From Candidatus Parcubacteria bacterium (lineage in GTDB: Bacteria; Patescibacteriota; Minisyncoccia; Phycocordibacterales; UBA918), in the NCBI GenBank assembly GCA_046050355.1, contig JBJOPW010000004.1:5800-69799 (forward strand): DNA of 64,000 nucleotides. Direction: 5' to 3'. Below, one piece after another: positions 7,557 to 37,495 of the stretch. Both the position numbers and the translations under genes were made by a program. Each line of letters starts with the position of its first letter. The stretch's first letter is position 1. The notes under the pieces are model-generated. The model saw only the letters and a list, made by a program, of their open reading frames with translations, was not told the origin of the DNA and did not search any database.

Positions 7557-7982
7557 TCAGGCTACTTGATGAGCCTCGATCTCAGCTTTGACCTTAGCAA
7601 GACGGTCGCTGTCCCATCCCTTGATGTCGAGTTGTGATAAAACCCAAACGACGTCAAGGAGTTCGAAGAAGGAATGGATCGTGTATCCTTCATGACGAAG
7701 ATGAGTGACCTCTCCTTGCTGCCGATCCATGAAGACGAAGTGGGTCATCGCCTTCACATCATAACCGTCGTTCGATTCGAGACGTTCGAGGGCTTCGAGT
7801 AACGAGCCGCCACTGGTCACCACGTTCTCGATGGTGAAATAGATGTGATGTTCCGGGTTGGGACGGCCGTTGACCCAGTAGCCACGTTGTCCGGTGGCAC
7901 CGTGAGTCTCCTTGAGCTTTTCGCGCATAATGCGATAGCCTAGCCGATGTCGACCGAACGTTCGAGGATCATAGTGGGTCAC
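7557..7982 (-). pseudogene. 3' fragment of a host type-I phosphoribosyltransferase (OPRTase/pyrE-like) gene, separated from its 5' part by the inserted element
   Basis: KETHGATGQ is HGEGG-like. The PRPP-binding motif IENVVTSGGSLLEALE matches VDDVITTGGT. The first ~4 codons (GTG, then PPM) come from element DNA across the attL core. Confidence 0.6.
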
Positions 7983-9399
7983 CATCGGGGGCACTCAAGT
8001 CATTCTTGAGGTCCTGAAGCCAACTCTGTGGCTCCAAACATAACTCTCCTGGACTGAGGGTTCGGTACGAGAAGAGATTTTGCACCATCTGACGTTTTTC
8101 ATCGCCTATCGCCACTTTGTATTGCAGATCAAAGGTCGTTGCGAGTTCGAGGAAGTTCTGTACGTCCTGTTCTGTCGGAAGGTTTTCGGTCAGTCGTGAG
8201 CGTTCTTGGGTGAGGTCAGCGAGTTCAAGTGTCATGTTCTGCTTCTTCGCCTCGAAGTCTGGCTTTGAGATTGTGCCATCGATCAGTAGATCTGTAAGTC
8301 GATCCAAGCGCTGCTTCTGTTGTTCGATACGCAGGTCCAGCGACCGTCTGGTGCTGTTGAGGTCCGGATCATGGATGAACTCTAGTAACGACGCACGGAG
8401 TACCTCTGCCTCTTCCTGCCTGAGTGCAACTGTCCGGAAACACTTCTCGACGGCCTCTTCGATCTTGTCTTCTCGGATGGTTGTCGTTGGGCACGATGCT
8501 GTCTGGCATCGATAGTACACTCTGCCTTTCTGCCTCTCTGGAGAAAGTGGGCCGTTACACAACGCACAGCGAAAAAGCCCGCGATAGCGATGGTTGTGGC
8601 GGGTGACCTTTTTTCCCGCCTTACCGACTTTCACGTCTTGGATGTTTCGATACGTGCTCACAGTGATGAGCGGCTCGTGTATGCCGTCGTACGTCGCGCC
8701 GGTTTGCCTGATGCGCATGACCCCGCAGTAGAATGGGTTCTGCAGCATGGTTTCGATCCCATGCAATGAAAGACTTCTGCCCCGGTGGTTCTTTAGGCCG
8801 ATGCGCACGGCTTCTCGGTGCAAGCTGCGAAGTGAGTGCTGTCCTGAGGCGTATTTCTCCAGCAGGTCACGGACCAACGGAGCTTTCTCCGGGCAAGGAG
8901 TCTTTGGTTTTCCTCGCCCGTTGTCGAGATATCCCAAGGGTGCTTGGAAGGGATAGAGGCCCTGGCGCAGCCGACCGTCGATGCCCTTCTTCGTCTCTTC
9001 CCGGAGGTTTCGGATGTAGTCAGCTGCGATCACGGCTTGGATGTCCGCAGTTAGTCGCCCTCCGCGAGAACGGAAGTCGAGACTCTCAGTCGCGAAGTAT
9101 ACACCAACTCCCTTGTCGGAGAGTTCGCTGATGATCGCCCAATCCTTGAGATTCCGTGCGGACCTATCGATCTTGTGGATGATGAGGCCAGAAGCTTTTC
9201 CACGCTCCAACAATTTGAGCATCTTCGTGAACACTGGGCGGCCAGACTTCGCCGCCGTTTCCTTCTCTTCAAACCAGTCAGTAACTTGGAGATTGTTACG
9301 ACTCGCAAATGCCGTAATAGCGTCCTTCTGAGCTTCGAGAGAAACGCCTTCTCCCTGCTTCTGGGTGGAAACCCGTATGTATCCAAAACACGACTTCAT
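7969..9399 (-). CDS. Large serine recombinase (resolvase/invertase N-terminal domain plus recombinase and zinc-ribbon C-terminal domains)
   Basis: YIRVSTQKQ with catalytic Ser, then GLIIHKIDRSARN. 476 aa with a Cys-rich C-terminal region. The last 4 codons run across the attL core. Confidence 0.9.
   Translation of the reverse strand: MKSCFGYIRVSTQKQGEGVSLEAQKDAITAFASRNNLQVTDWFEEKETAAKSGRPVFTKMLKLLERGKASGLIIHKIDRSARNLKDWAIISELSDKGVGVYFATESLDFRSRGGRLTADIQAVIAADYIRNLREETKKGIDGRLRQGLYPFQAPLGYLDNGRGKPKTPCPEKAPLVRDLLEKYASGQHSLRSLHREAVRIGLKNHRGRSLSLHGIETMLQNPFYCGVMRIRQTGATYDGIHEPLITVSTYRNIQDVKVGKAGKKVTRHNHRYRGLFRCALCNGPLSPERQKGRVYYRCQTASCPTTTIREDKIEEAVEKCFRTVALRQEEAEVLRASLLEFIHDPDLNSTRRSLDLRIEQQKQRLDRLTDLLIDGTISKPDFEAKKQNMTLELADLTQERSRLTENLPTEQDVQNFLELATTFDLQYKVAIGDEKRQMVQNLFSYRTLSPGELCLEPQSWLQDLKNDLSAPDGDPL
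7974..7982. repeat. attL core: 9-bp direct repeat gtgggtcac (left junction of the element)
   Basis: Identical 9-mer at 37082..37090 and 32549..32557. The host PRTase reading frame resumes exactly here. Confidence 0.6.
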
Positions 9400-9605
9400 A
9401 GTTCGGTGTTGCTATCGTCGGATTCTATCAGATCTTTATTTTTTGGCGAATCACGCCACGGCCAAGATTGATCGCATAGCATCCGCAAGTAGATCTTCTT
9501 GCAGTGTTCAAGATGCGCTCTCAGAAATTCGTCGTGGTTCATCGAACCAGTCTATAACCTCCAATTTCTTCGAATAGTCCGCGAGGTTTCGAGCTATTGC
9601 CTCTT

Positions 9606-10760
9606 TCAATGCCGTGTCACCAGAGAGAACGGCTTCGAACGTTCACCTGAAACCATGATTTGTGCATAAGCATGATGGTTCGGAAGTCCAATGAGGTCCG
9701 CTGGAGATACCCCTTGCATTTGAGCGGCAATCACCGGGGCATCCAGTGCTCCGACACGAAATGCAAGCGTGCTGCCGACGTTCCCCATGATGGCCTCGAA
9801 CACCGTTCTGTCTGCCTGGAGGGTGTGTTGATGAGCCAACGTGATAGCCACACCGTACTTCCGTACCTCGGAAAGCATTCCTGCGAAGGCGGTCGTCGTA
9901 AATGAGTGGAACTCGTCCACGTATAGCATGAAGGGTCTCCGGCCACCTTCCGCGACACTCTGTCTGCTGAAGGCTGCGTTCATAACGGCTGATACGATCA
10001 GCCCTCCAAGAACGTTTGCGATGTCGCCACCGATTGCACCCTTGGCGAGGTTCACTACAAGAATTTCACCGTTGTCCATCAAGCGCCTGAACCGAATGGG
10101 CTCAACAGGTTCGCAGATCGCCGAGCGAACGACAGGATGAGACAGGAACGCCCCTAGCTTGTTGGCAATCGGGGCAACGCCATCGACGGCGTTCTTGTAG
10201 TTCATCGTCGGATATTCGACTTCCCAAAAGTAACGCACCTGAGGATCGGTTATGCGGTGAAGCACTCGCTTCTGAAATTCTCGCTCGATCAGCAACCTGA
10301 CGACTTCGCGGATGTCTGCCTGCGGCTGCTCAAGCAACGCCAGAATTGAGTAACGAAGTAGGTGCTCCATGCGGGCACCCCAAGCATCCTCCCATTGACG
10401 TCTGAGTGCTTCGATGAGGCCAGAGCATACGAGTGGGCGCAACGATGCCTGGACGGGACGAATAGGGTTGTAGCCCAGACCGCAGTTTGGGTCGGCAAGG
10501 TTCCAGAAGTGGAGCGGACGCTGCACAGTCGCTGATAGGCTCAGGGCGAGATCGCCGTGCGGGTCGATCACACAGAAACCGCGTCCCTCGGCAACATCTG
10601 CCTCAGCGAGGTTCCTGATCAGGGTAGACTTCCCGGTTCCGGTCTGACCGACAACGTACAGGTGAAGAAGCCGGTCCGAGAGTGCGATGGATACTGTTTT
10701 CCCGTCCTGGCGACCGGAAAGGAGCCCAAGTACGGACGCATTAGACTGTGTGTTGTTCAC
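9606..10760 (-). CDS. Type IV coupling-protein-like ATPase (TraD/TrwB/VirD4 family, soluble form)
   Basis: Walker A VVGQTGTGKST, a Walker B-like MLYVDEFH, and a C-terminal TLAHQ motif. Paralogous to the 13887 gene. Confidence 0.6.
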   Translation of the reverse strand: MNNTQSNASVLGLLSGRQDGKTVSIALSDRLLHLYVVGQTGTGKSTLIRNLAEADVAEGRGFCVIDPHGDLALSLSATVQRPLHFWNLADPNCGLGYNPIRPVQASLRPLVCSGLIEALRRQWEDAWGARMEHLLRYSILALLEQPQADIREVVRLLIEREFQKRVLHRITDPQVRYFWEVEYPTMNYKNAVDGVAPIANKLGAFLSHPVVRSAICEPVEPIRFRRLMDNGEILVVNLAKGAIGGDIANVLGGLIVSAVMNAAFSRQSVAEGGRRPFMLYVDEFHSFTTTAFAGMLSEVRKYGVAITLAHQHTLQADRTVFEAIMGNVGSTLAFRVGALDAPVIAAQMQGVSPADLIGLPNHHAYAQIMVSGERSKPFSLVTRH

Positions 10761-10980: not shown

Positions 10981-11514
10981 ATGGGCTACGCTGTAGAAGA
11001 CGACGAACTGGGTGGTATCGGCTATACCCCGACCTGCAAGAGTTGCGGTTCCGAACATGTATCCAAGGATGCTTGGGCCTGTTGGAATCCGGCTACTGGG
11101 ATGTGGGAACTCGAAACCACTTTCGATCATGAGTACTGTCATGTGTGCGAGGCCGACACGTCGTTCACCTGGCAGCGAGTGGAGAGCGTTCCATCAAGGC
11201 GCGTTCGGGCCTTGAATGACAGGTTCCGCAAGGAAGGCGGAAAGGAACGGTCGGTGGTCGTCACCTCCGGCGTTCTGGCGCTCGGGACAGACTTCCTTGT
11301 CGCCGCGCTCGTAGCCATCCGGGACTTCGACAGCTTCACTGACGACAATGACCCCTGGGGCGAGCATGACTACGGGAAGGTCACCATCCACGGCCAGCCC
11401 GTCTTCTGGAAGATCGACTACTACGATCTCAACCTCGCGGGACGCTCATCCAATCCCGCCAACGACGGCGAGACGCATCGCGTACTGACCGTCATGTTGC
11501 CAAGCGAGTACTAA
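10981..11514 (+). CDS. Hypothetical protein, DUF3768-like (plasmid/ICE-associated)
   Basis: 177 aa with DPWGEHDYG...FWKIDYYD motifs, recalled from ICE-borne proteins. Weak assignment. Confidence 0.35.
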   Translation: MGYAVEDDELGGIGYTPTCKSCGSEHVSKDAWACWNPATGMWELETTFDHEYCHVCEADTSFTWQRVESVPSRRVRALNDRFRKEGGKERSVVVTSGVLALGTDFLVAALVAIRDFDSFTDDNDPWGEHDYGKVTIHGQPVFWKIDYYDLNLAGRSSNPANDGETHRVLTVMLPSEY

Positions 11515-11907: not shown

Positions 11908-12258
11908 ATGTCCACCGAGTTTGCCCTGGACCTGCGCCTCGCGCGCCGGAAAGCAGGCTTCACGCAGCGCGACTGCGCACATTTATTAGCGATCTCTCCG
12001 TCGGTCTTGTCACAGATGGAAGGCGGCAAGCGCCTGCCGAGCATTCTTCAGATCTGCATGCTGTCCGTCATCTACGGTCGATCCTTCGAAAGCCTTTTTG
12101 GCTTTCTTCTTGACGAGGCTCGTGCCCAGCTCCGGACGCGCATTTTGAGCTTGCCTGAAGATGTCCGTCACTTCGCCGGGACTCGCAACCGCGACTACAG
12201 CATCGACCGACTGGCGCAGCGCTTAGCAGATGAGCAAGACGTACATGGCGGCGCTTAG
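11908..12258 (+). CDS. XRE-family helix-turn-helix transcriptional regulator
   Basis: LRLARRKAGFTQRDCAHLLAISPSVLSQMEGGKR is a canonical XRE HTH. Confidence 0.6.
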   Translation: MSTEFALDLRLARRKAGFTQRDCAHLLAISPSVLSQMEGGKRLPSILQICMLSVIYGRSFESLFGFLLDEARAQLRTRILSLPEDVRHFAGTRNRDYSIDRLAQRLADEQDVHGGA

Positions 12259-12727
12259 GATACTCTCCATTGCGGCAGCCACTGGTCGGATAGCGTACGT
12301 CTATTTGATCGGCGATCGGCTGATGGACTGGCGCATTTCAGACAAGGCTAGTTCGTCTGCGCAAGACGCGAGAGAAGCATCGGCCCATTGGATCGAGACG
12401 CTCCGTCCGGACGTCGTTGTTACGGAGATTCCGGTGTCGAAGACTCGAAAGGGCGACAACACCAGACAGTTGATCGAAGCAATGGCTAAAGTGGCCGAAG
12501 AAGCGGATGTACTGGACGTCAAAGTCACCCGAGAGCAATCCTATGCGAACAAGTACGAAGAGGCCGCTGCATTAGCAGAGAGCTATCCGGAGCTGCTGCC
12601 GTGGGTCCCACGCAAGCGCCGCTTCTTCGACAACGAGCACCGCAATACCGTGCTCTTTGAGGCTTTGGCCCTAGCGCAAGCAATCGTTCGGTCGCCTGCA
12701 ACTACCCTTGGGGCCGCGATGGGATAG
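12230..12727 (+). CDS. Hypothetical protein, co-transcribed with the XRE regulator
   Basis: 165 aa; overlaps the upstream gene by 29 nt; no recognised domain. Confidence 0.35.
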   Translation: MSKTYMAALRILSIAAATGRIAYVYLIGDRLMDWRISDKASSSAQDAREASAHWIETLRPDVVVTEIPVSKTRKGDNTRQLIEAMAKVAEEADVLDVKVTREQSYANKYEEAAALAESYPELLPWVPRKRRFFDNEHRNTVLFEALALAQAIVRSPATTLGAAMG

Positions 12728-12802: not shown

Positions 12803-13357
12803 ATGCGCTCATATCATGCCGCTCGCGCGGTTTTTTCTCTCTTCTCTGGGTTGGCCTGGACCGTGATCCTCATCGGAATTCTTGCTGTGTTTCTAGGCAT
12901 TGCACGGGGACGCAGCATAAACCCGTACAATCCAGACCTAGGAGCTGCCGTGGTCGCAATACCCGGAGTCTTGGCTGTCGTATTTGGCTTGGTTATGCTG
13001 GTAATGGCTCAGATGGGCCGCGCCGGGGTTGATACCGCAGAGTATTCTCAGCAGATGCTGCAGGCATCGCGGGATCACATGGAAGTCTCACGACAACTGG
13101 TTCGCCAAGGCGAAAAACTCGAACAGGGCTATGCTGCTCTTGCGGCGAAACTCAGCATACCCCCGTCGGTTTCGTATGATGGTCGCATTTCCACAGCGGA
13201 AGCGTCTTCTTCTGCGGCACCCGCAGCTACACCGCTCTCCGCCACTGGCGAAGGTACGACGCAAAAGGTGGGCTACAGCGACCGGCTCCAGATCGAACAG
13301 GGTATCCCGATGACCACCCTCCAGGGTGCTGACGCGAAGTCTACCGCGTCGTCCTAA
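12803..13357 (+). CDS. Hypothetical membrane protein
   Basis: 184 aa with two N-terminal TM helices and a Ser/Ala-rich C-terminus. Confidence 0.35.
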   Translation: MRSYHAARAVFSLFSGLAWTVILIGILAVFLGIARGRSINPYNPDLGAAVVAIPGVLAVVFGLVMLVMAQMGRAGVDTAEYSQQMLQASRDHMEVSRQLVRQGEKLEQGYAALAAKLSIPPSVSYDGRISTAEASSSAAPAATPLSATGEGTTQKVGYSDRLQIEQGIPMTTLQGADAKSTASS

Positions 13358-13530: not shown

Positions 13531-13890
13531 ATGCGAATTTCGATCTCTCACCATGATGTCCGTAAGGGACTATTGTTCAGGAAGACTATGCACGAAGTCC
13601 ACTTGTCGGTGGCCTTCACCCACGAAGAAAAGCAGATTGTGCGCCAGCGCCGTCTAGGGGATCAGGTCATCCTGCAGCGCCGTCCGGCGAACGCCAAAGT
13701 TGATGATCGCGACAGTAAGTTCGTCCTGCGACTAGGTGACCTGCTTGACGGTCGTACCGACCGCTTTCTCCTCGCAACACCATCTGCAGCAAAAATCTAC
13801 GAGGAAGACCTGATCCGAATGTTGGCCCAAGTGAAGCTTTGGATTTCAGACAATGCAGAGACCGCAGGTCGGACGGTGATTGAACTTTGA
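13531..13890 (+). CDS. Hypothetical protein
   Basis: 119 aa; its stop overlaps the start of the next gene. Confidence 0.3.
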   Translation: MRISISHHDVRKGLLFRKTMHEVHLSVAFTHEEKQIVRQRRLGDQVILQRRPANAKVDDRDSKFVLRLGDLLDGRTDRFLLATPSAAKIYEEDLIRMLAQVKLWISDNAETAGRTVIEL

Positions 13891-15971
13891 GCACAGAACG
13901 CGAGATCAAGGAGTTCTTCAACTCGACGCTCGGATTGGGCGTCCTTTTTGTTTTCCTCCTCCTCGGCGTGGTAGTTGCACCGATATTCCTCATAGGGGCA
14001 GCGGTCTATGTAGTGGGTCGCCTTTATCTTGAAAACCCCGCCAGACTGGAGCGGGTAGCGAGACGAGAGACAGAGATCCTATACAATCACGCGCTCGCCG
14101 GGCAAGTTATCTTGAGCCGTGATGATATTGATGAAATCTTGTCAGCTAGCTGGCCGGAAGAATTGCCATTTCCAACGCGTGCACAGCTGCTTGATCTTGG
14201 CTATGAGCTTTTCCGAGACGAGGGACTTAGTCCAGACATTCCACCAGTTCCGGCACTTTGCAACACGGTGGAAGGGGCAAGATACCGCGACCTGCTTGCG
14301 AGACTAGGACAAGCGCGAACGGATCGTGTGATGGTTACCGCCGCTCTTTCGCAAATTGGAGAAAGTCTTTCGGTCGTCGCGCGGGCAATTCCAAACCTTG
14401 ATGGAGATGTACTTGTTTCTGTCTCTCAGTTCTTGGAACCGGTTGGTCCGACCATCGAAGAGATCATTGCGCCCTTTTATAGGGAGACTGGCTATATCCA
14501 TTTCAAGGCTCTGAGGGAACGCCTCGATCAGAACTTGGAACGGACCCATCGGACAAACCCGGTCTTTCCCCGCGACTACAAGGGTACTGATGCGGTTGAA
14601 ACCTACTTGGCTGGTACCCGGCTCAAAGCTCTCTTCAGCATCAAGACGCCCTTTGAGATCCCCGAAGCTTCACGCTTCGAGCATGTGCACATGGTTGCGG
14701 GAACCGGTCACGGGAAGACTCAGACGCTCCAATACTTCATCGCTAAAGACCTCCTCGACGTCGCGCGGCGTGACAAGTCCATTGTCGTCATTGACAGTCA
14801 GGGCGACCTGATCAGAACGATCCTCGCAGCCAAGCACCTTCCCCCCGAGCGCATCGTCTTGATCGATCCGGAGGACATTGCGTTCCCGGTAGCTCTCAAC
14901 TTGTTTTCGGTCGGCCAAGAACGTCTCACGGGCTACAGCGCGGTCGATCAGGAACGGCTCACCAACTCGATCCTGGAGCTCTATGACTTCGTGCTGGGGT
15001 CACTCCTTGGGTCGGGGATGACGTCGAAGCAGAACGTCATCTTCCGCTATGTCACCAGGCTCATGCTTCATATACCGGACGCTACGATCCACACCCTTCG
15101 GGAGCTCATGGAGCCTGGAGGGACGGTGAAGTATCAAGACGCTATCGACCGGCTGGATGGAACCGCGCGCAAGTTTTTCGCCAGCGAGTTTGACGGCAAG
15201 GAGTTCACGAACACAAAAGCGCAGGTCCTACGTCGCCTCTATGGTGTGCTGGAGAACCGTACCTTCGAACGGATGTTCTCGCACCCAACTTCACGCTTCG
15301 ACATGTTCACCGAGATGAACGCGGGGAAGCTCATTCTGATCAACACGGCGAAATCTCTGCTGAAAGAACAAGGCACGGAGATCTTCGGCCGCTTCTTCAT
15401 CGCCCTGATCGCTCAGGCCGCGCAAGAACGTGCCACCCTGCCAGAGTACGACCGGCTCCCGTGTATGGTTTTCGTGGATGAGGCCCAGGACTACTTCGAC
15501 GAAAACATCGGGATCATCCTCAGTCAGGCACGCAAGTATCGGGTCGGCATGACACTGGCACACCAATATCTTGGACAACTGTCTTCCTCGCTTCAGGAGG
15601 GCGTTGAGGCGAACACGGCAGTCAAACTTGCAGGCGGTGTCTCGGCTCGGGACTCCCGTGCTCTTGCAGGACAAATGGGGGCTGACCCCGACATGATCGC
15701 CCGACAGCCAAAGGGAACGTTTGCTGCCTTTATCCGTGGCGTCACAGAGAAAGCAGTCCCGATCTCGTTCCCGTTCTTTGTCCTAGAGAAATCAGAGAAG
15801 ACGACAGACCAAGAGCGGGCCGAAATCCGGACTTTCAGCCGCAATGCCTATGCGCACGCCTGGGATCGTCCCGAAGAAGACCAACAGCCGACGGAAGCGA
15901 ACAGCGACATTCCTTCCGGAGGTTCAAGAGACGACCGCATAGACCCACTTTCTCCTTCCACAGAGCTATGA
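13887..15971 (+). CDS. Type IV coupling protein (VirD4/TraG/TraD family) with an N-terminal membrane anchor
   Basis: N-terminal TM helices, Walker A VAGTGHGKTQ, Walker B MVFVDEAQDYFD, and TLAHQYLGQL. Confidence 0.7.
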   Translation: MSTEREIKEFFNSTLGLGVLFVFLLLGVVVAPIFLIGAAVYVVGRLYLENPARLERVARRETEILYNHALAGQVILSRDDIDEILSASWPEELPFPTRAQLLDLGYELFRDEGLSPDIPPVPALCNTVEGARYRDLLARLGQARTDRVMVTAALSQIGESLSVVARAIPNLDGDVLVSVSQFLEPVGPTIEEIIAPFYRETGYIHFKALRERLDQNLERTHRTNPVFPRDYKGTDAVETYLAGTRLKALFSIKTPFEIPEASRFEHVHMVAGTGHGKTQTLQYFIAKDLLDVARRDKSIVVIDSQGDLIRTILAAKHLPPERIVLIDPEDIAFPVALNLFSVGQERLTGYSAVDQERLTNSILELYDFVLGSLLGSGMTSKQNVIFRYVTRLMLHIPDATIHTLRELMEPGGTVKYQDAIDRLDGTARKFFASEFDGKEFTNTKAQVLRRLYGVLENRTFERMFSHPTSRFDMFTEMNAGKLILINTAKSLLKEQGTEIFGRFFIALIAQAAQERATLPEYDRLPCMVFVDEAQDYFDENIGIILSQARKYRVGMTLAHQYLGQLSSSLQEGVEANTAVKLAGGVSARDSRALAGQMGADPDMIARQPKGTFAAFIRGVTEKAVPISFPFFVLEKSEKTTDQERAEIRTFSRNAYAHAWDRPEEDQQPTEANSDIPSGGSRDDRIDPLSPSTEL

Positions 15972-26668: not shown

Positions 26669-26774
26669 GCCTTTTCTAGTCTCATTATCATTCCACAGAT
26701 CGAGACTACAAGCAAAGGTTGGGTGACCGGATTCTGCAGACCCGGCCACCCGCGCTCCCACAAGGGGAGGGTCG

Positions 26775-28976: not shown

Positions 28977-29738
28977 TCAAAGCCTGATTATTGTATCCTG
29001 AACCTGCAGAGCGCTCATCGCCGAGCAGAACTCAGTCAAGCCAAAGTCTCGATTAAATCGGTCATTAGACTCATGAACCAAAAGCGTCTTCGCCGCGAAG
29101 ACAGCGCCCGAATCACGTGCGAGTACTATAGCTCTCAAGTACTTCCGGTCCAAATCTCCAGAAATGCTACCAGACACAACCCGAAGATAACTGGTGTCTG
29201 CTCCTACAACATAGACACGATCTGCCTGGCAAAAGTAATAACCCTGATGATCGGGGTCAACGCTTTTCCGAGCAACTTGGAATGGAGAAACGTCATCATC
29301 ACCGATCGATCTGTAAGCGTCAAAGAACTTATCGAAGTTCTTGCGCTTAATGAAATTCATGAACCGGAATAGACCACAGTACTCAAAGAAAATTAACCCT
29401 CCAGAAACTAAGTCCCCAAACCCATCCGACCGGTAATAACGAAATGCACCAAGCAGAGTCCGTGCCTGCTGAATAGACTGACTATCTATCCCCAGACTCT
29501 CGCTAAGCGCTGAGTACGTTCTAAATTGCCTGTTTGGAACTCTCAAACACACGTCAACTTTTGCAAGAGACGAAAGTTCAACTTCTTCCCCCCTATAGAT
29601 TTTTTCAAGTGTCGCAATGTCTGGCGCACGCGAGCCAAAGACCTTCTTGAACGCCCGAGCAGTCTTGAAGCCGTCCGCTACCGCTCTAGCCAAAACTTCA
29701 TCACCGACCAACGTTCGAGCGCCTGACTTCAACACCAC
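28977..29738 (-). CDS. Hypothetical protein (orphan gene in an AT-richer patch)
   Basis: 253 aa; no recognised motif. Local GC is lower than the surrounding element. Confidence 0.4.
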   Translation of the reverse strand: MVLKSGARTLVGDEVLARAVADGFKTARAFKKVFGSRAPDIATLEKIYRGEEVELSSLAKVDVCLRVPNRQFRTYSALSESLGIDSQSIQQARTLLGAFRYYRSDGFGDLVSGGLIFFEYCGLFRFMNFIKRKNFDKFFDAYRSIGDDDVSPFQVARKSVDPDHQGYYFCQADRVYVVGADTSYLRVVSGSISGDLDRKYLRAIVLARDSGAVFAAKTLLVHESNDRFNRDFGLTEFCSAMSALQVQDTIIRL

Positions 29739-29943: not shown

Positions 29944-31272
29944 ATGCGCATCGCAATGGTTTACCCAGAAGTCTTCGACCTTGCACGGTTCAATGAAAAG
30001 CGGAAAGAGTTTCCGCCTTTTGGGGTAATGTACCTATCCGCCATGATGGAGCAGGCAGGGCACGTTGTCCAAGTATTTGCCATATCCTTCGAAACGAGTG
30101 CGATCGATTTCCGAGGCTTCGATGCAGTAGGATACTCCATCCCATCATCAGCAACTTTTGGTATAACAAAGAAGGTACGGTTTGCTAGTAAGTACGACGA
30201 GGGGGCACTGATCATGGCTGGTGGAGTACACGCAAACCTTTACCCACTGCAGACTCTGGATGAATTGGAACCGGACGTTGTTGGCATTGGTGAGTGCGAA
30301 CAGACCATACTCGACATCTTGGAGAGGGGTAAGAATGCGGATTTTGGTAACATCCTCGGAGTCGCCTTTAAGAAGAACGGGGAAGCAGTGAAGACACCTC
30401 CTCGTCGAGTAGATAAAGACATTGACTGGCTTCCACTTCCATCCCGACACCTCCTGCCTCGGTCAGACATTGTGATGAGCAATCGACTATCTAACACGGA
30501 CATCGAAATGGCCCACGTCATGTTCACACGTGGATGCCCGTTTCCGTGCAGGTTCTGTGCAGTTGCGCAAACTAAGATACAGTATCGCTCAGGCGCCAGC
30601 GCAAGACGTGAAATAGTTCACCTAATGGAAACTTATGGAATAGGTGGTTTCGCCATTGTCGATGACAATTTCATCGTTGACAAGCGTAAGGTTCATGACG
30701 TAGCCGAAAGCATCCAAGACCTCGGTGTAAAATGGTCGGCTCTTTCCCGAGTCGACACCATTGACAAAGAACTGCTCACGGCAATGGCCTCATCCGGATG
30801 CATCGAAATTAAGTTTGGAATGGAGTCAGGGAGTCAGAGAATTCTTGATGCAATGCAGAAAAACACGACCCCGGAACAGATCCTAGAGGCCGCAAGGCTT
30901 TCATATGAAGCCGGCATCAAGGCCAAGTTCTTTATTGTTCATGGTTATCCTGGTGAAAACATGGAGACCACAGCCGAGACAATCGCCCTCCTTGATAGAG
31001 CTAAAAGATATGTAGATCGAGTTTCGCTCTTCAGGTTTGCCCCATTGCCGGGGACATATGTCTACAATCACCCTGAAGAGTTCGGCCTCCGGGGAACGGA
31101 CCGGCAAGCAGACTGGGATGGCAACTGGGATAAATATCATATTTATCACAATGCGTACCACTGGTGGGGAACGGATGATCAATTTGAAGAGCTGAACAGG
31201 GCGCACACGGAGATCTCCAACTATATTGACGAAACTTGGCCAGCGACTTTTCAACCGCCCCAAAATGTGTAA
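29944..31272 (+). CDS. B12-binding-domain radical SAM protein (class B radical SAM family)
   Basis: N-terminal B12-binding-like Rossmann region, then FTRGCPFPCRFCAV (CxxxCxxC). 442 aa. Confidence 0.8.
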   Translation: MRIAMVYPEVFDLARFNEKRKEFPPFGVMYLSAMMEQAGHVVQVFAISFETSAIDFRGFDAVGYSIPSSATFGITKKVRFASKYDEGALIMAGGVHANLYPLQTLDELEPDVVGIGECEQTILDILERGKNADFGNILGVAFKKNGEAVKTPPRRVDKDIDWLPLPSRHLLPRSDIVMSNRLSNTDIEMAHVMFTRGCPFPCRFCAVAQTKIQYRSGASARREIVHLMETYGIGGFAIVDDNFIVDKRKVHDVAESIQDLGVKWSALSRVDTIDKELLTAMASSGCIEIKFGMESGSQRILDAMQKNTTPEQILEAARLSYEAGIKAKFFIVHGYPGENMETTAETIALLDRAKRYVDRVSLFRFAPLPGTYVYNHPEEFGLRGTDRQADWDGNWDKYHIYHNAYHWWGTDDQFEELNRAHTEISNYIDETWPATFQPPQNV

Positions 31273-31282
31273 AACTTAGAGA

Positions 31283-32029
31283 ATGGAGAGGATTGGAACT
31301 GTAGAAGCGGTGTTCCTACGCAAGGCACATGGCCGTGCTGTTGAGGAATCAACAGTCCTCAACTTAGTGGCTGATTTCGGGATCGTAGGGGATATCAACT
31401 TCTCGGCTTCGTCGCCTCGCCATTTGCTACTTAAGAGGATTGGACGTCCAGGCGATTGGACGGACAACGCCGGTTACTTCAATGAAAACGTTTCTTTCAC
31501 TTCTGAAAGTCTGAATTCGCTTCGTCCGGGAGACATCGTAAGAGTTGGCTCCGCAACTCTCCTCGTTCGTTCAAAAAATGAGCGGTGCAACATTTTTGCG
31601 CCAGAGGTCCGCGTGGCACGAGGCCTTCATTGTGTTTGCATAGACGCCGGATCCATTCGTCGTTCGGATGACATCATAAAGCTCGGTAGCGTTTCTATCG
31701 CAGAGGACAGTCGCGCGGCACTATTGGTAACGGGCCTCAGGGCTGTTCCGCTCGGAAGAGTGGTGACTTTTGAAGATGCATGCACTATGATTGGTGGCAG
31801 CCGCCCACACTTGCGGATCATTCCAAGACTGCTAAAGATTGCAATTACTTTGCATCCAACTGGGGTTCCATTTCACAGGTTAGTCAAATCTAAGGGTGAT
31901 CTAATTGACAACATTGTCACTGATCAGATGCTCCTCCTGGCGGCGGAAGGTATATCGACTTCAAACGGAAGAACTGTAAATCTTCAGTTCCGTCATGTTT
32001 TCGGGAGAAACCCATTTTGCGAAATGTAA
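31283..32029 (+). CDS. MOSC-like beta-barrel domain protein (putative)
   Basis: 248 aa. GD...PGDIVRVGSATLLVRSKNERCNIF resembles the MOSC PCxxL Cys motif. Moderate. Confidence 0.4.
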   Translation: MERIGTVEAVFLRKAHGRAVEESTVLNLVADFGIVGDINFSASSPRHLLLKRIGRPGDWTDNAGYFNENVSFTSESLNSLRPGDIVRVGSATLLVRSKNERCNIFAPEVRVARGLHCVCIDAGSIRRSDDIIKLGSVSIAEDSRAALLVTGLRAVPLGRVVTFEDACTMIGGSRPHLRIIPRLLKIAITLHPTGVPFHRLVKSKGDLIDNIVTDQMLLLAAEGISTSNGRTVNLQFRHVFGRNPFCEM

Positions 32030-32433
32030 GCTGCTTTGTCTCGATGGCAATTGAAGCTCGTGAAGCACTTAGTGAAGAGCTCTCCGCAATTAAGAGTGTG
32101 TGCAGTAGATTTGGTGTTAGAGCCCATGTCTTCCTAGATGAATACTCATTTGAGAAAGGCAAAGAATCCCAAATGATGGCGGAGGTCGTTTCGTGTATTA
32201 ATGGCTGTGATTTCTTGATTGCTGAAGTAAGCAAGAAGGCGATTGGGGTGGGGTGTGAGGTTGGCATCGCTGCAGCATTGGGAAAGCCGGTGATCTATTG
32301 TCGGCAGGCAGGGAGTCCAGCTTCGCTGACGGTTGGCGGACTGGCAAGTTTTACTCTGACTTATAGTGAAGCCAACGAACTTGCGCGGAAACTAAGTTTC
32401 GTATTAGAGAACAGGTTCTTCGAGTCCGACTAG
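32017..32433 (+). CDS. Nucleoside 2-deoxyribosyltransferase-like (NDT/SLOG-fold) protein
   Basis: CDFLIAEVSKKAIGVGCEVGIAAALGKPVIY matches the NDT-family D..IA..G...E.G.A.A.GKPV motif. An alternative start at 32044 is possible. Confidence 0.5.
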   Translation: MRNVSCFVSMAIEAREALSEELSAIKSVCSRFGVRAHVFLDEYSFEKGKESQMMAEVVSCINGCDFLIAEVSKKAIGVGCEVGIAAALGKPVIYCRQAGSPASLTVGGLASFTLTYSEANELARKLSFVLENRFFESD

Positions 32434-32548
32434 ATTTCGATGCTACTTGGACCGGATCCCGATCTTTTATCTGGGTGTCCGGCATCTAGTGTCTTAGTCA
32501 AGGCAATGAGAATTCATTGAAGTGAGGAAGTTTGAGAAGTGTTTCGAA

Positions 32549-32557
32549 GTGGGTCAC
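32549..32557. repeat. Internal third copy of the att core gtgggtcac, embedded in a ~25-bp att-arm-like sequence
   Basis: gagaagtgtttcgaagtgggtcaca (32534..32558) versus gagaagtgttccgatgtgggtcaca at the right junction: ~23/25 identical. Confidence 0.55.
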
Positions 32558-32811
32558 ATTTTGGAAGTTTCGGAGCCTTCCTCGTTGCTCCGGCTCATTG
32601 TTTAACTTGATGACGGTCGCCGTCACGGGTCAGTGTGTTGATCGTACAGGATCCATGAGTGGGGTTTCGAAGCGGTCCCTGCATACCTTGGAGTTCCGGG
32701 TAGCTCGGGTGGAGGATAGTGATATTCGAGGCGCTCTCCCGTGTGGAGTGCTCGCCAATGACAGTTTGGTCGCGCATGCTGTCAGGCGCAGGACGCTAGA
32801 AGACCCTCATT

Positions 32812-32846
32812 GACAACTCATGGTATAGTATCTATGTCTTACTAGC
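32812..32846 (+). promoter_or_regulatory. Putative sigma70-like promoter for the Ubl-E2-E1 operon
   Basis: TTGACA, a 17-bp spacer, then TATGTC; an AGAGG ribosome-binding site 7 nt before the ATG at 32865. Confidence 0.3.
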
Positions 32847-32864
32847 TAAATGTAGAGGTAAACC

Positions 32865-33107
32865 ATGTCCGAGAAATACAAATTCAAAGTTGAGAATGAA
32901 ACCTACGAGTGGGGCGATGCAACCATCACCGCAGCGGAAGTACGCGGGGTCGGTCCAGGGATTCCTGATAGCATGGATCTCTTTGTGAAGCTTCCCGGAA
33001 AGCCTGCGCGCTTAGTGTCGGATCCAGGCGAAGTCTTTGATCTCTCGAAGCCGGGAATCGAGAAATTCTTTGCGCAGAACTCATCGTCGGAAGCGGGCGC
33101 CAACTAA
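32865..33107 (+). CDS. Ubiquitin-like beta-grasp protein (Multiubiquitin-type single domain)
   Basis: 80 aa. Pattern KFKVENETYEWGDATITAAEVRG...PGIEKFF resembles prokaryotic Multiubiq/Ubl partners of E1/E2/JAB operons. The stop is 2 bp before the E2 gene. Confidence 0.45.
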   Translation: MSEKYKFKVENETYEWGDATITAAEVRGVGPGIPDSMDLFVKLPGKPARLVSDPGEVFDLSKPGIEKFFAQNSSSEAGAN

Positions 33108-33109
33108 TT

Positions 33110-33517
33110 ATGCCGTTATTGTTCGAAGATGACTACGAGTACTTGAAAAGTACTGGGCTAAAGTACGATGAGTACACGGACCAGCGCTTCTTGGTGGTCA
33201 GGGCTTACCCCGTTCCGGAGGGTAAGTACATCTTCGAAGGACAACCGGTTCGGACGGTCGATGTCCTGTCCATTATCCCGCCAAACTACAACACCGAAGG
33301 CTGCGACATGTTCTGGGTGCACCCAGCGATATCGCGTGCTGATGGAAAGCCCATTCCGGCAACTGGCGGCGACGACAGAGTCTTCGACAACACGACCTTC
33401 GTTCGTTGGTCCAGGCACTGGCCTGCCGGTCGATGGAGACCCAAGGTTGATACAATAGAGACCATATTGAGCCGTATCGACTGGGCCTTGCATAACCCAG
33501 ACCCTGCTGAAGCATGA
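33110..33517 (+). CDS. Prokaryotic E2-like (UBC-fold) protein
   Basis: 135 aa. IIPPNYNTEGCDMFWVHP has the HPN-like ... Cys arrangement. Overlaps the E1 gene by 4 bp (ATGA coupling). Confidence 0.5.
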   Translation: MPLLFEDDYEYLKSTGLKYDEYTDQRFLVVRAYPVPEGKYIFEGQPVRTVDVLSIIPPNYNTEGCDMFWVHPAISRADGKPIPATGGDDRVFDNTTFVRWSRHWPAGRWRPKVDTIETILSRIDWALHNPDPAEA

Positions 33518-34965
33518 GCCAACCCCGCATCACCCTCCTGCAATCACATCGAGAGCGCTTGGAGCGTTGGTTACCGTCTCATCCAGAGCATCACGAACGT
33601 GCCGCTGTAGTACTGTTCCGCTCGTTTGCACGAGAGGTACTGGAACAGACTCAATCAGAACGGCTCGTCTCGGTCGACGTGATCGAAATGACTGATGACT
33701 GGCTCGTGGAGAGCTCAGTCATCAGTGTCAAAGTCAACCTTCGAAAGCTTGTGGATCTGTATTTCCGCTGTGAGCAGGAGGGCTTACACTTAGGCTTCGT
33801 ACATAGTCACCCACTTGGTGCTGACGCCTTCTCGGGTCAGGACGATCAGAACGAACAAAACATCTTGCGGGGCTACGCTGGCTGCAATGGACGAGACTCA
33901 AGATTGGTGGCTCTTGTCTACGTCGACGGCGAGTGGATTGGTCGGGTGCGTTATGCGACCAAGCCAACCGAGAGCTCGCCTGTTCGTCACATACTTACAC
34001 TGGGGGAAACCCTTGCTGTACACCATTTGACCAACCCGGAGGGTGATCTGGCTACACTGGAGCGACAGGCGGCCGCTTTCGGTCGACCATTTAATCAAAA
34101 GCTTCAGTCTCTTAGAGTTGCAGTGGTTGGGTGCGGAGGTACCGGCTCACCAACTGCTACCCTTCTGGCTCGCGCAGGTGTCGGCGAACTTATTCTCATT
34201 GATGGTGACAACCTAGAGGAAAGCAATCTCAACCGGGTTCGAGGCTTGCGGAGAGATGATGTCGGACACAACAAGGCAGAGAGGCTGTGTTCGTACATCC
34301 GCTCCTTATCCCTGCCAACATCCGTGTCGTTTGTCCCCAATTATCTTGAGGACAATCGGGCAGCTGTCGACGCACTTTCCTCAGCCGATGTCGTATTCGG
34401 CTGCACCGACACCGTGGCAAGTCGAGAACTCTTAAACGAGGCTCTGTACTATTATGGGTTTGTGCTCATTGATTGCGGACTGTCGGGAGAAGTTGCCAGC
34501 ACTGCTGATGGGAAACCAAGGCTCATTGAGCATCGCGGTCGCGTAAGCACCGTGCAGCCCGAAACTGGAGCTTGCCTGCGCTGCCAAGGGGTCGTCACAG
34601 ACAACAAACTGAGATACGAGAGAGCGGTCAACGAGAACCCAGAGCTCAAGAAGCTCGACGCCAAAACGCTGCTCCGCGAACATTATCTAGTTGGCGGAGG
34701 CGAAGCCGCTCCGGGGGTCGGACCGTTCACTAGCGCAACTGCCGATCTTGCTGTCTCCTCACTATTTGAACTCATTCATCCATACAGACAACTGGGCGGC
34801 GATTTCCGTCCTGACAATATTTGGCAAGATTACTTGCATATGACTTATCACAGTAACGAGCCCCGAAACCTTTCTGCCGATTGTTATTGCTGTGGCACGC
34901 GCGCGATCCTACTGAAGCGTGAGCGTCAAGTTCTACTGGACAGACCGGCACTTGGTACGATTTGA
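33514..34965 (+). CDS. JAB/MPN (JAMM) metalloprotease fused to an E1-like ThiF/MoeB adenylyltransferase
   Basis: JAMM motif HLGFVHSHPLGADAFSGQD (HxHx7Sx2D). ThiF Rossmann motif VAVVGCGGTGSPTATLLARAGVGELILIDGD. C-terminal CxxC pairs. Confidence 0.8.
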   Translation: MSQPRITLLQSHRERLERWLPSHPEHHERAAVVLFRSFAREVLEQTQSERLVSVDVIEMTDDWLVESSVISVKVNLRKLVDLYFRCEQEGLHLGFVHSHPLGADAFSGQDDQNEQNILRGYAGCNGRDSRLVALVYVDGEWIGRVRYATKPTESSPVRHILTLGETLAVHHLTNPEGDLATLERQAAAFGRPFNQKLQSLRVAVVGCGGTGSPTATLLARAGVGELILIDGDNLEESNLNRVRGLRRDDVGHNKAERLCSYIRSLSLPTSVSFVPNYLEDNRAAVDALSSADVVFGCTDTVASRELLNEALYYYGFVLIDCGLSGEVASTADGKPRLIEHRGRVSTVQPETGACLRCQGVVTDNKLRYERAVNENPELKKLDAKTLLREHYLVGGGEAAPGVGPFTSATADLAVSSLFELIHPYRQLGGDFRPDNIWQDYLHMTYHSNEPRNLSADCYCCGTRAILLKRERQVLLDRPALGTI

Positions 34966-34966
34966 T

Positions 34967-35401
34967 ATGAATCTAGGCATTCCCAAGATATTTCTAAACT
35001 TCTGGAAGAAAGCACGGCTTCCAGAAATCCAAGAACCTACCAATCATGTGAGGCACTATCAAGCTGCCCTGATCTTGGAAAGAACACCAAGCAACTCGGC
35101 AATCGGAGATCGCGATTTTGTATTCGTGATCTATGAGACCGTTCCACGGTGGGCACTGTTTCGATGCCCCTGCGGCTGTAGCGAAGTCATCAGCCTACCC
35201 CTAGCTGCTCCACACAATCCTCGATGGGCCGTCTATGTCGACGAGGATGGCTTCGCTTCTCTGTATCCATCCGTTTGGCGCAACACTGGCTGCATGAGTC
35301 ACTTTGTAATTCGCTCAGGATGTGTATTCTGGGCGAATAAGAGCGGGGTCAGCCCATTTGAAGCCAGCCCAAATTTCTATAAGCCTCGCATTCCCAAGTA
35401 G
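34967..35401 (+). CDS. Cys-rich putative zinc-binding protein, fourth gene of the Ubl operon
   Basis: CPCGC...GCMSHF...SGC cysteine clusters. The ATG at 34967 lies 1 nt after the E1 stop; a longer ORF from 34919 is possible. Confidence 0.4.
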   Translation: MNLGIPKIFLNFWKKARLPEIQEPTNHVRHYQAALILERTPSNSAIGDRDFVFVIYETVPRWALFRCPCGCSEVISLPLAAPHNPRWAVYVDEDGFASLYPSVWRNTGCMSHFVIRSGCVFWANKSGVSPFEASPNFYKPRIPK

Positions 35402-35415
35402 AAGGGACGTGAGCT

Positions 35416-36837
35416 CTAGTATTCCCAGCGAACAAAATAGCCAGACCGTCCATAGCAGTCGTATCCGCGCTTGTCCTTATGTGCCTTGAGCATTGTCCCG
35501 GAGCTCTTCCTCTTGAACTCTTTTCCGCAGTAGGTACATGCGATCACCTGAAGGGGTCCACCAGAGTAGGTTGAAGGCCTGCGATTCACTCGACCCGCCG
35601 AACTTCCTCCTCGCTTTGTCTGGGCACCAAGCCGACCGCCTCCTCCAAAGTAGGAATTTTCTGGCAGCTCACCTGCTTTTGACAGTTCGACCTCGAAGCG
35701 CGGTTCGAACTTTTCTTCAAGTATCTGTGGCTTCTCAACTTTTGGATTAACCAGGGACTTGATTCCGGTTGACCCTGAGGCACCTCCAGTTCGATCCCAC
35801 ACATAGAAGTATTCGCGCGGAGACCCGTCCGATGGACGTTTGTAGCTTAGAGCGTAAGGTTCGACGACCCTCTCGTATCCGTCATAGGTTAGTCGGATAA
35901 GCCGTTGTTGAGACCCGGCTTCCAAGAAGACGTTACGAAGTTCTGCCGGAAAGAAGGCATCGCTTATGCGATCTGCCATACCGCTCGTTTCGAATACACT
36001 ATCGACGAACCGCGTGTACGCTTCTGTCGCGGTGTCGAAGTCTATTTTGCTTGCTGCCGGGCAAACTATGTATTTCTCCCATGCCGCCCGGAAGAAGGCC
36101 ATGGGGAGACCAAGGAGTATTTGCCGAGCTGAACCCGGACTTCGTTCAAAGATGGTCTTCTTGAGAAAGACGCTTGCAATTGTTGATCGATCAAGGTCAA
36201 TCCGATCATCAAAGAACGCAGCGTAAACTAGATCGTAGAGATCATGGGAGTGACGACGTTGCAGCAAGCATTTGAGCTTAGATGCCATGCCCTCTTCGAG
36301 AGCAACACATCTAAGATTTACTCTGCAGACATCTGAATCCGAATATGGATGAATAAGTGGAACCGTGCTCACTGGAAGATACAAGCGGTCGAACTCTGTC
36401 ACATCCATCCGAACTGAAATTTCCAGCGCGCTTTTCTGGCCATAGAAATCTTCGAAGAAGACCTTTCCCTTGTAGATTTTTCTGTCGGTGTTTTTGCCGA
36501 GATTGGCCCGTGCGGCTTCTTTGAAAGAGCTTCTCTCACTTACAAACTTGATACCCGATACAGCTTGAGCCATCTTGCAGCTACGTTCAATTTGAGCAGT
36601 CAGTTCATCCAAGTCAACTGCACGTTCAGTTGAGAAATCCAGGTCAGAGGAGAACCTGGTGTTCGGAAAGTACGCTTTTCGGAAGCAGTTTCCGCCCTTT
36701 AGGATGAGAAGGTCACTGAGATACTCATTTTGGTATATTGCAAACAGGAGCCAGCCGAAGACGTAGTCACGCTGAACATTCGAGGTATTGATCTCGAATT
36801 CAGCAGATTTCTGGTCGATTTCATCTCTCTCGATCAT
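35416..36837 (-). CDS. AbiEii/DUF1814-type nucleotidyltransferase fused to a WYL-like domain and a C-terminal zinc ribbon
   Basis: NTase motif LKGGNCFRKAYF...SSDLDFS. WYL-like LIRLTYDGYERVVEPYAL...EYFYVWD. C-terminal CTYCGKEF...C. Confidence 0.7.
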   Translation of the reverse strand: MIERDEIDQKSAEFEINTSNVQRDYVFGWLLFAIYQNEYLSDLLILKGGNCFRKAYFPNTRFSSDLDFSTERAVDLDELTAQIERSCKMAQAVSGIKFVSERSSFKEAARANLGKNTDRKIYKGKVFFEDFYGQKSALEISVRMDVTEFDRLYLPVSTVPLIHPYSDSDVCRVNLRCVALEEGMASKLKCLLQRRHSHDLYDLVYAAFFDDRIDLDRSTIASVFLKKTIFERSPGSARQILLGLPMAFFRAAWEKYIVCPAASKIDFDTATEAYTRFVDSVFETSGMADRISDAFFPAELRNVFLEAGSQQRLIRLTYDGYERVVEPYALSYKRPSDGSPREYFYVWDRTGGASGSTGIKSLVNPKVEKPQILEEKFEPRFEVELSKAGELPENSYFGGGGRLGAQTKRGGSSAGRVNRRPSTYSGGPLQVIACTYCGKEFKRKSSGTMLKAHKDKRGYDCYGRSGYFVRWEY

Positions 36838-37081
36838 GTGACTACTCTACACCAAATCCCAAGCTACGGCACCTTAAGGCGATGATGACGGTTTGGCCAA
36901 GGAACACAACCCGTATGGCACCTCTATGCTGCATCTGCTGTGTCTTGAGGCTTTTGATACTTCAAATTGTACTGCCACTGCGGGATCTTATTTGGAGTAC
37001 ACGCTGGTCTTTTAGGACAGAAGGTTAGAAGGTGGCTCAGGGACGTCTTCATCTCCTTTAGAGTTCGAGAAGTGTTCCGAT

Positions 37082-37090
37082 GTGGGTCAC
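37082..37090. repeat. attR core: 9-bp direct repeat gtgggtcac (right junction)
   Basis: Matches 7974..7982. Host PRTase sequence (AASVTH codons) starts here on the minus strand. Confidence 0.6.
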
Positions 37091-37495
37091 ACTGGCGGCA
37101 AAACCGGTGGCGGCAGTGGGGATGCCGATGATGATGGGTTGACGCCTTTCATCATCGGACAAAATGTCGCAGATGCGTTTGCCGATGAATCGTCCGCACC
37201 GCTCAGTCAGGGATGGGTTGTCGGTCAGGTCGCCACGACCATTGAAGTAGATGTGGCTCGCTACACCGCTTTTCAGTGTGAACGGATCTTCTGTCCACAC
37301 CAACATTCCATATTTGACCATTTCACGGATCAGGTCGATCTCCTCGTTTTCGAAGCGACGACCTGCACCGAATGGTGAAGTAAGTTCTGGCAAAGTACTA
37401 ATCCTTCCTGTTTGGGCCACTCCATCACGTATGGTGTGGCGGTTTGGCGATGGGGGTAGAGTACGCTTTGGCAAGTAAAAATGCAAGTACAGCAA
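37082..37495 (-). pseudogene. 5' fragment of the split host PRTase (OPRTase-like) gene; the ORF continues into element DNA to a stop at 37058
   Basis: KSGVASHIYFNGRGDL matches the OPRTase KSGRKSPYFFN motif. IIIGIPTAATGFAA is the GIPxAT region. It ends where the 7557..7982 fragment begins. Confidence 0.6.

Follow-up and report, generated by a model that had tools for sequence, protein, structure and literature searches.

An island very probably inserted by its own large serine recombinase into an orotate phosphoribosyltransferase-like gene of a Candidatus Parcubacteria chromosome

How do the two halves of one gene come to lie some 29 kb apart on a bacterial chromosome? The question is raised by a stretch of 64,000 nucleotides (nt) from a Candidatus Parcubacteria bacterium (GenBank assembly GCA_046050355.1, contig JBJOPW010000004.1, positions 5,800 to 69,799 of the forward strand), which we call the window and within which coordinates are given. 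The source is a metagenome-assembled genome (MAG), RLZZ360, of the candidate phyla radiation (CPR), with the GTDB lineage Bacteria; Patescibacteriota; Minisyncoccia; Phycocordibacterales; UBA918. An earlier note, made from the sequence alone, had proposed that a phosphoribosyltransferase (PRTase) gene is split here by one serine-recombinase element of about 29 kb. Our analysis makes it very probable that an island of about 29.1 kb (7983-37081) inserted by means of its own large serine recombinase (LSR), which recombined the island's attachment site, attP, with a look-alike target site, attB, in an orotate phosphoribosyltransferase (OPRTase)-like gene of the CPR chromosome. The host flanks of the island hold housekeeping genes, namely clpB, miaA, parB, relA/spoT, topA, dprA, serS, dus and a holB-like gene, and the 90%-identity cluster of the window topA takes in a Ca. 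Paceibacteria MAG.

Deletion of 7983-37081 in silico gives one continuous minus-strand open reading frame (ORF) of 242 amino acids (aa). Its N-terminal part (37091-37393, minus strand) supplies residues 1 to about 101 and is annotated as RLZZ360_386, a 111-aa protein that reads into the element. The C-terminal part (7557-7973, minus strand), annotated as RLZZ360_361 with 142 aa, supplies residues from about 105 to 242 and contains the flexible loop REKLKETHG and the phosphoribosyl pyrophosphate (PRPP) loop ENVVTSGGS. Both fragments are free of internal stops and frameshifts. The earlier note had placed the N-terminal half at 37082-37495, and the mechanical ORF does run from 37058 to 37495; this is indeed the N-terminal half, but the limit at 37495 lies upstream of the likely start, a TTG at 37393 behind an AGGAAGG ribosome-binding site. 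Intact homologues of 242 aa and 241 aa align with the restored ORF over its whole length and without gaps. One of these (P0001, on contig L001 of another Candidatus Parcubacteria MAG) has 242 aa, starts at the same TTG and is 86% identical in aa sequence at 100% coverage; it is followed by miaA, as in the window, and the DNA alignment crosses the junction without a gap. A second intact allele (P0143, contig L074) is 90% identical in aa and 89% in DNA sequence and is collinear with the window through miaA; its attB core, GTCACCCAC, matches eight of the nine core positions. Related genomes therefore do hold the uninterrupted allele, with the miaA synteny kept, as the earlier note had anticipated. 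In an alignment of the restored protein with 14 homologues, the junction lies in the conserved segment GFAASVTHY, which has no indel.

The family profile matches OPRTase structures only, reaching an E value of 5.5e-18 with human OPRTase (2wns) over positions 35-232. An AlphaFold (AF2) model of the restored protein has a pLDDT (predicted local distance difference test) of 88.7 and a pTM (predicted template modeling score) of 0.87, and in a Foldseek search of the PDB with this model the top 40 matches are all OPRTases (2wns, TM score 0.69/0.82). The restored protein is predicted to adopt a type I PRTase fold with an OPRTase hood. The idea that the two fragments are matching halves of one OPRTase-like PRTase held up well, since both profile and fold span them and the similarity to OPRTases extends over the full length of the reconstituted ORF. 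The scores against curated models are lower: TIGR00336 (pyrE) gives 52.1 bits with a cut-off of 106.8, and Pfam Pribosyltran gives 23.1 with a cut-off of 26.3, so that neither cut-off is reached. The flexible loop REKLKE(T)HG is present in the family, and the PRPP loop (residues 153-161) reads (E/D)-N-VVT(S/D)G, with an Asn that is invariant in all 15 family members, every one of which falls far short of the pyrE thresholds. Canonical OPRTases have a second acidic residue at this position. Because of the scores below cut-off and the PRPP-loop Asn, we call the protein OPRTase-like and place it in a divergent family, whose substrate or activity may differ from that of canonical PyrE. A pyrF gene (OMPdecase) lies 1.7 kb upstream of the intact L001 allele, in a pyrF-purE-purC run just upstream (L001 2429-4847). 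None of these three genes occurs in the 64-kb window, where the corresponding position (37533-38672) holds a 379-aa methyltransferase gene. Since pyrF, purE and purC are missing from this locus, the split gene may be dispensable here.

The junctions themselves are defined to the base pair. The 9-mer GTGGGTCAC occurs exactly where the earlier note had found it, at 7974-7982 and 37082-37090, and since the bases flanking the two copies differ, the direct repeat is exactly 9 bp long. The window contains three copies against 0.50 expected, a count reached in 0 of 100 shuffles; the third, which the earlier note had not mentioned, is at 32549-32557. The first copy is the core of attL and the second the core of attR. 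Inward of attL lies the P' arm of attP (7983-8012), within the LSR coding sequence, and the right element end is the P arm (37062-37081, AGTTCGAGAAGTGTTCCGAT), identical to that of the relatives L002/L003. On the P-arm side, homology to element relatives ends exactly 20 nt past the core. The earlier note had described the element-side arms as partly dyad-symmetric, and a dyad CCGATG...CATCGG is present in the reconstructed attP.

Joining the two element ends predicts an attP that reads, on the LSR strand, ...CCCCGATG-GTGACCCAC-ATCGGAACACTTCTCGAACT... (context TTCCGATGTGGGTCACCATCGGGG, junction ...GTTCGAGAAGTGTTCCGATGTGGGTCACCATCGGGGGCACTCAAG...), and joining the host sides predicts an attB with the context TCATAGTGGGTCACACTGGCGG and the junction ...GAGGATCATAGTGGGTCACACTGGCGGCAAAACC.... 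The two sites share only the 9-bp core, and the integrated element is flanked by the hybrids attL and attR. The nearest relatives of the LSR, 97%, 91% and 90% identical, are on the metagenomic contigs L005, L004 and L002/L003, where the adjacent coupling-protein-like gene is also found; another, 89% identical, is in a Rhodobacteraceae MAG (L031). In L002-L005 and L031 the predicted attP is contiguous, as GTGCCCCCGATG GTGACCCAC ATCGGAACACTTCTCGAACT (P' arm, 9-bp core and exactly 20 nt of P arm). The match is 41/41 nt in L002/L003, 40/41 in L005 and 39/41 in L004; in L031 the P' arm and core are unchanged and the 20-nt P arm has one change. An intact attP is also present in L006. Because these relatives carry both element ends joined as an intact attP, integration by LSR-mediated attP x attB recombination is well supported. 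The LSR of the island itself presumably carried out the reaction.

The LSR gene (7969-9399, minus strand) encodes 476 aa as integrated and would encode 527 aa on the circular form. The protein contains a Resolvase domain (PF00239, 110.8 bits, residues 5-147) with a YIRVS motif at residues 7-11, as well as Recombinase (PF07508, 40.4 bits) and Zn_ribbon_recom (PF13408, 41.5 bits) domains, both over their cut-offs. The earlier note had this gene abutting the left junction. It does sit at the junction, but in fact it reads across it: the last sense codon is partly core and partly host DNA, and the stop codon (7969-7971) belongs to the host. As the 3' end of the LSR gene contains attP, integration would exchange the last 51 or so codons for one codon and a host stop, leaving the catalytic, recombinase, zinc-ribbon and coiled-coil parts intact. 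Most of the 44 LSR homologues examined end in the motif GDPxRxTSRT, encoded by the core and P arm, so an attP overlapping the 3' end of the LSR gene is a trait of much of the family.

What attracted the recombinase to this gene? Read by eye, the distance between the core and a TCGAAC motif is 13 nt in the P arm and 8 nt in the B' arm of the PRTase site. In the B' arm of a tRNA-Glu gene used by a relative the motif lies at a similar distance to that in the PRTase B' arm, within 1-2 nt, and the other two half-sites have no clear motif. A shift of about 5 bp is a known difference between the attP and attB half-sites of serine integrases. The shift of TCGAAC by about 5 bp suggests that the PRTase site resembles a tRNA T-arm target by chance.

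We propose the following course of events. A circular, integrative and probably mobilizable island of about 29.1 kb would have met, with its attP, the look-alike attB in the OPRTase-like gene. Catalysis by the island's own LSR, with the crossover inside the shared 9-bp core, would have left attL at 7974-7982 and attR at 37082-37090, with the gene interrupted after codon 104 or so. Excision would be expected to restore the gene. That the integration was precise and intragenic, with a reconstructable attB, had been the central claim of the earlier note, and the restored ORF, the intact alleles and the attP of the relatives all speak for it.

In one respect the earlier picture of a single element needs correction, since the insert is composite, with a 24.6-kb LSR element (7983-32557) followed by a 4.5-kb cassette, S (32558-37061; the unit extends to 37081 with the P arm). 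The boundary is an internal half-att site (32529-32557), made of a P-arm variant (32529-32548) and the third core (32549-32557), which matches the attR side (37062-37091) at 27 of 30 positions. Cassette S encodes Multi_ubiq (32865-33107), E2_E (Prok-E2_E, 33110-33517), a JAB+ThiF E1 fusion (33514-34965), DUF6527/BubE (34919-35401; BubE in newer Pfam labels) and, on the minus strand, AbiEii (35416-36837). The genes at 32865-35401 form a complete prokaryotic ubiquitin-like conjugation operon. Between the attR core and the internal P-arm end, the window is 95.5% identical over 4566 nt to another contig (L079 3585-8150), and the homology stops exactly at the internal half-att site. There, S has identical ends, with the core and the S-type P arm (P_S) on one side and the same flanking sequence, X, plus core and P arm on the other, and its position is 98 nt past the attP of an element whose LSR shares just 63% identity with that of the window. 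X has no similarity to the P' arm or to the host arms. On contig L078, the far end of the relative integrated at tRNA-Glu, five direct copies of core plus P arm (at 5247, 6577, 9491, 10103 and 12047) separate units of one or two genes, one of which includes an AbiEii 93% identical to that of the window. These repeats extend to 160 nt, corresponding to the 3' tail of an LSR ORF. To judge from these sequences, the cargo end of the element family is an array of cassettes delimited by half-att sites. Such an array could have arisen through action of the LSR on non-canonical site pairs, through tandem accretion followed by deletion, or through homologous recombination at the repeats.

This structure bears on how the island was put together, and the explanations that compete with a single insertion event differ greatly in merit. 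We consider it reasonably probable that the insert consists of two units, in tandem or nested, namely the 24.6-kb LSR element and the integrase-less 4.5-kb S (32558-37081), which were joined by site-specific recombination at the core; this would refine the proposed insertion. The third core with its P-arm variant, the sharing of S with L079 with the same ends beside a divergent LSR, and the five sites of L078 all fit, and Ccr LSRs are known to move tandem defence cassettes in staphylococci (PMC11470126). However, because X is unlike both the P' arm and the host arms, the reaction would depart from the canonical attP x attB scheme; homologous recombination at repeats of 30-160 nt could yield the same pattern, and no circular form of S was seen. 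A broader proposal is that the LSR family works as a capture system like SCC (staphylococcal cassette chromosome) or integrons, in which defence cassettes, each ending in a half-site of core plus P arm, are stacked beside the attP of the recombinase and exchanged between elements by site-specific recombination, while the elements themselves move between Alphaproteobacteria and possible CPR episymbionts. We regard this as a tentative idea that is rather doubtful at present; if true, shared elements would be a usable marker for the hosts of Parcubacteria.

The other explanations fare much worse. An assembly or binning chimera, in which an alphaproteobacterial element was joined to a CPR contig, would account for the relatives of the element in Alphaproteobacteria and its match to a Ruegeria small RNA (sRNA) family, and the source is a MAG. 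Yet the mere 9 bp that the two sides have in common would not let an assembler join them, the att arms on which both junctions exactly fall are known independently from relatives, and the ORF is restored in frame. The attL region was also recovered at 99.98-100% identity in three other assemblies from different runs (two Logan assemblies, SRR35355747 and SRR35179846, and one JGI assembly, 3300043408), a fragment ORF running across attR is recorded in Logan as well, and a different CPR contig also contains an integrated member of the family. We take a chimera to be effectively refuted. Hardly any weight is left, too, for the notion that the island merely lies between two PRTase genes that are separate by nature, or between parts of an old pseudogene. 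The MAG annotation does list two hypothetical proteins, but the gapless fit to 14 homologues, the junction inside GFAASVTHY, the unbroken reading frames and a model that forms one OPRTase domain all contradict it. Could the P4-like tyrosine integrase (27750-28961, plus strand) have inserted the island instead of the LSR? It is an intact protein with Arm-DNA-bind and Phage_integrase domains and an AlpA partner, and it is conserved in relatives (81-88% aa identical in L002-L004). Its gene, however, is separated from one end by about 8 kb and from the other by about 20 kb, the junctions are the two halves of a site in the 3' end of the LSR gene of relatives, and the module is internal in relatives with an intact LSR attP. 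This origin is very unlikely. Slightly less so, though still improbable, is a regulated switch of the kind formed by the sigK skin element or comK prophages, which would turn pyrimidine metabolism back on by excision in certain conditions. In its favour, the ORF would be rebuilt by precise excision, and the LSR seems to be intact. Against it, the split occurs once, the relatives either use a tRNA gene or remain in the attP state, the PRTase site has the look of a chance pseudo-attB, and without the pyrF, purE and purC genes that flank the L001 allele the gene may be dispensable.

For the insertion of a mobile island by its LSR, which we prefer, several observations count on the other side. The intact alleles come from relatives at 86-90% identity, of another strain than that of the window, and neither an attP nor an empty-site sequence from the same population was found. 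Relatives whose LSR is at least 89% identical are all in the attP state, and none shows a native attB. No recombination directionality factor was identified. The contrast in G+C content is modest (0.54 for the island, 0.49 for the host). The alphaproteobacterial link of L031 (LSR 89%) rests on MAG binning, and in an LSR tree the subclade to which the window belongs is made up solely of unnamed metagenomic sequences, among them the CPR-integrated P0022, with no named isolate. The case for mobilizability is weakened by the low scores of the coupling-protein assignments together with the missing mating-pair-formation genes.

What kind of island is it? Beside the LSR, the backbone consists of a 384-aa coupling-protein-like ATPase (9606-10760, minus strand; TrwB_AAD_bind, with weak TraG-D_C; 63-93% aa identity in relatives) and a plus-strand series: DUF3768 (10981-11514), an XRE-type helix-turn-helix protein (11908-12258), orf165 (12230-12727), orf184 (12803-13357), a 694-aa ATPase resembling DNA translocases and type IV coupling proteins (13887-15971), a Replic_Relax relaxase-like protein (15990-16871) and orf318 (16783-17739). 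Replic_Relax scores 67.6 bits (cut-off 25.3), TrwB_AAD_bind 24.9 (cut-off 20.5) and T4SS-DNA_transf 22.3 (cut-off 20.1). Among the element ORFs there are no mating-pair-formation families (VirB4, VirB6, pilin), and the island was not classed as an integrative and conjugative element on that ground; no oriT was identified on the element. Since mating-pore genes are absent, the island is at best like an integrative and mobilizable element (IME). It is probably of the mobilizable-island type, and transfer would presumably be by mobilization. A prophage was considered and rejected: neither Pfam nor PHROGs gave capsid, portal, terminase or tail families, apart from weak P-loop terminase matches by the ATPases.

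The cargo is largely defence-related. Besides the AbiEii and the ubiquitin-like operon of cassette S, it comprises, all on the minus strand, a type III restriction enzyme (17772-20765), a type III methyltransferase (20777-22639), DUF4391 (22656-23420) and an HKD/SNF2 helicase (23417-26761). Next comes the second integration module with the tyrosine integrase, which also contains a 61-aa AlpA-like ORF (26775-26960, minus strand) and an H-NS-like gene (27143-27472, plus strand; Histone_HNS, 61.5 bits). Inside the element we found no tRNA genes or fragments that would account for the P4-type integrase. H-NS proteins are typical of Proteobacteria, and the one here is encoded on an island in a CPR genome. 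The Rfam match to RF02649, "Ruegeria trans44 sRNA" (26729-26990, minus strand, 174.6 bits), lies over the AlpA-like ORF, and what counts as an sRNA family may be no more than alpA mRNA from islands of this type. The remaining cargo is orf253 (28977-29738, minus strand) and an operon (29944-32433) encoding a B12-binding radical SAM enzyme (29944-31272), orf248 (31283-32029; weak MOSC and DNA_binding_1 matches) and a nucleoside 2-deoxyribosyltransferase-like protein (32017-32433). This operon may be a nucleoside- or DNA-modification module.

The relatives tell where such elements live. All named LSR homologues, at 57-64% identity, are from Alphaproteobacteria. The backbone is found in L002 at 75-93% aa identity for most genes (orf184, 65%), in L008, a 1.9-Mb contig with a G+C content of 0.59, at 62-84% (orf184, 47%), and in the chromosome of the isolate Albidovulum sediminis FT324 at 46-81% (orf184, 31%); its synteny is kept in the isolate and in other contigs. 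A further relative, P0022 (contig L072, LSR 69% identical), has its P' arm and a GTGACCC core fused to the 3' end of tRNA-Glu(CUC) (L072 11417-11490). The TruB encoded on this contig is closest, at about 70% identity, to Ca. Kaiserbacteria, Patescibacteria and Minisyncoccia sequences, so the host of this tRNA-Glu-integrated relative is a CPR bacterium as well. Another family member, on contig L073 (1900-2000 and 8380-9798; LSR 61% identical), is truncated right past the GD codons of the core region, and its low-G+C flanks (0.39-0.45) carry a diversity-generating retroelement (RVT_1 and bAvd); it is probably a third integrated copy, in a different target.

We scanned further sequence collections for attachment sites. 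An exact-pattern scan of genome contigs for P' arm plus core gave 45 matches, of which 43 are chance matches in unrelated coding sequence; the real ones are only those of A. sediminis and one Rhodobacteraceae MAG, both in the attP state, and the scan yielded no further PRTase-integrated copy. A pattern scan of metagenome contigs gave 0 matches, an LSR-based locus search found only recombinases of 22-29% identity, which were of no use, and core plus P arm had 0 matches in viral contigs. PLSDB plasmids gave only weak alphaproteobacterial matches (a Sulfitobacter plasmid, LSR 48%), and the family is therefore not mainly plasmid-borne. The element family clearly spans Alphaproteobacteria and CPR. 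We infer, tentatively, an alphaproteobacterial origin of the lineage, with both the direction of transfer and its recency uncertain.

The splitting of a gene by a serine-recombinase element is well-known biology. Examples are the Bacillus subtilis skin element (SpoIVCA) in sigK and SPbeta (SprA) in spsM, the A118-type prophages in comK of Listeria and the fdxN element (XisF) of Anabaena. The island is like these in having the LSR gene at one end, a short identical core at both junctions and an intragenic insertion whose precise excision would rebuild the ORF. Unlike them, it is not a phage or phage remnant and has a relaxase/coupling-protein backbone with defence cargo, its host is a CPR bacterium, its attP lies inside the 3' end of its own LSR gene, and there is no evidence of programmed excision. 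The added interest lies in this attP, in the SCC-like stacking of cassettes and in the host range across Alphaproteobacteria and CPR. IMEs with serine recombinases are known, for example in Firmicutes. With these the island shares a site-specific recombinase, a relaxase-like protein and coupling-protein-like ATPases without mating-pore genes, but its backbone (DUF3768, Replic_Relax and the 384-aa and 694-aa ATPases) represents an undescribed family of Rhodobacterales-type genomes and CPR, and it carries the second, P4-type tyrosine integrase/AlpA module.

For the cassette array, the nearest described analogue is the tandem SCC-like cassettes moved by Ccr. Ccr serine recombinases mobilise SCC/SCCmec composites and psiSCC in staphylococci, where defence cassettes are arranged in tandem (PMC11470126). 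Like the island, they have tandem, LSR-associated, defence-rich cassettes between repeated att cores, some of them recombinase-less (PMC11470126), and in both the same cassette can be found beside different recombinase-bearing elements. The island family differs in targeting a tRNA-Glu or PRTase gene rather than rlmH (orfX), in its LSR lineage, and in a repeat unit made of the core and P arm (up to 160 nt of LSR 3' tail) rather than a symmetric ISS. In addition, its cassettes stack inside the mobile element beside attP. Genomic islands and rare transfers from Pseudomonadota to Patescibacteria have been reported in Patescibacteria MAGs (PMC12455944). The present case is likewise an island of tens of kb in a Paceibacteria/Parcubacteria genome, but here att sites are resolved to the base pair, the recombinase is identified, and an empty-site allele and named isolate relatives are available. 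We found no published description of this element family or of an att-resolved LSR island in CPR.

The locus thus provides an attP/attB pair, resolved to the base pair and open to experimental test, from a so far uncharacterised lineage of LSRs. These recombinases work without host factors and serve in genome engineering. The locus also documents an att-defined mobile island in a CPR genome, with the same family in at least two CPR chromosomes and in alphaproteobacterial isolates. This is relevant to the acquisition of defence genes by ultra-small symbionts and, possibly, to the identity of their hosts. To judge from the cassette structure, defence systems may be mobilised in tandem, in the SCC style, outside staphylococci too.

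Two features of the window outside the island deserve mention. Just beyond the insertion, two T4SS_pilin-domain genes (3580-4731 and 5245-6366, plus strand), adjoining tRNA-Tyr and tRNA-Trp, belong to the host. At 57000-61600 the G+C content falls to 0.41-0.44, and the genes there include CreD (58541-59875), Peptidase_S51 and YecM. These three are known mainly from Proteobacteria, and the region may be another acquired segment.

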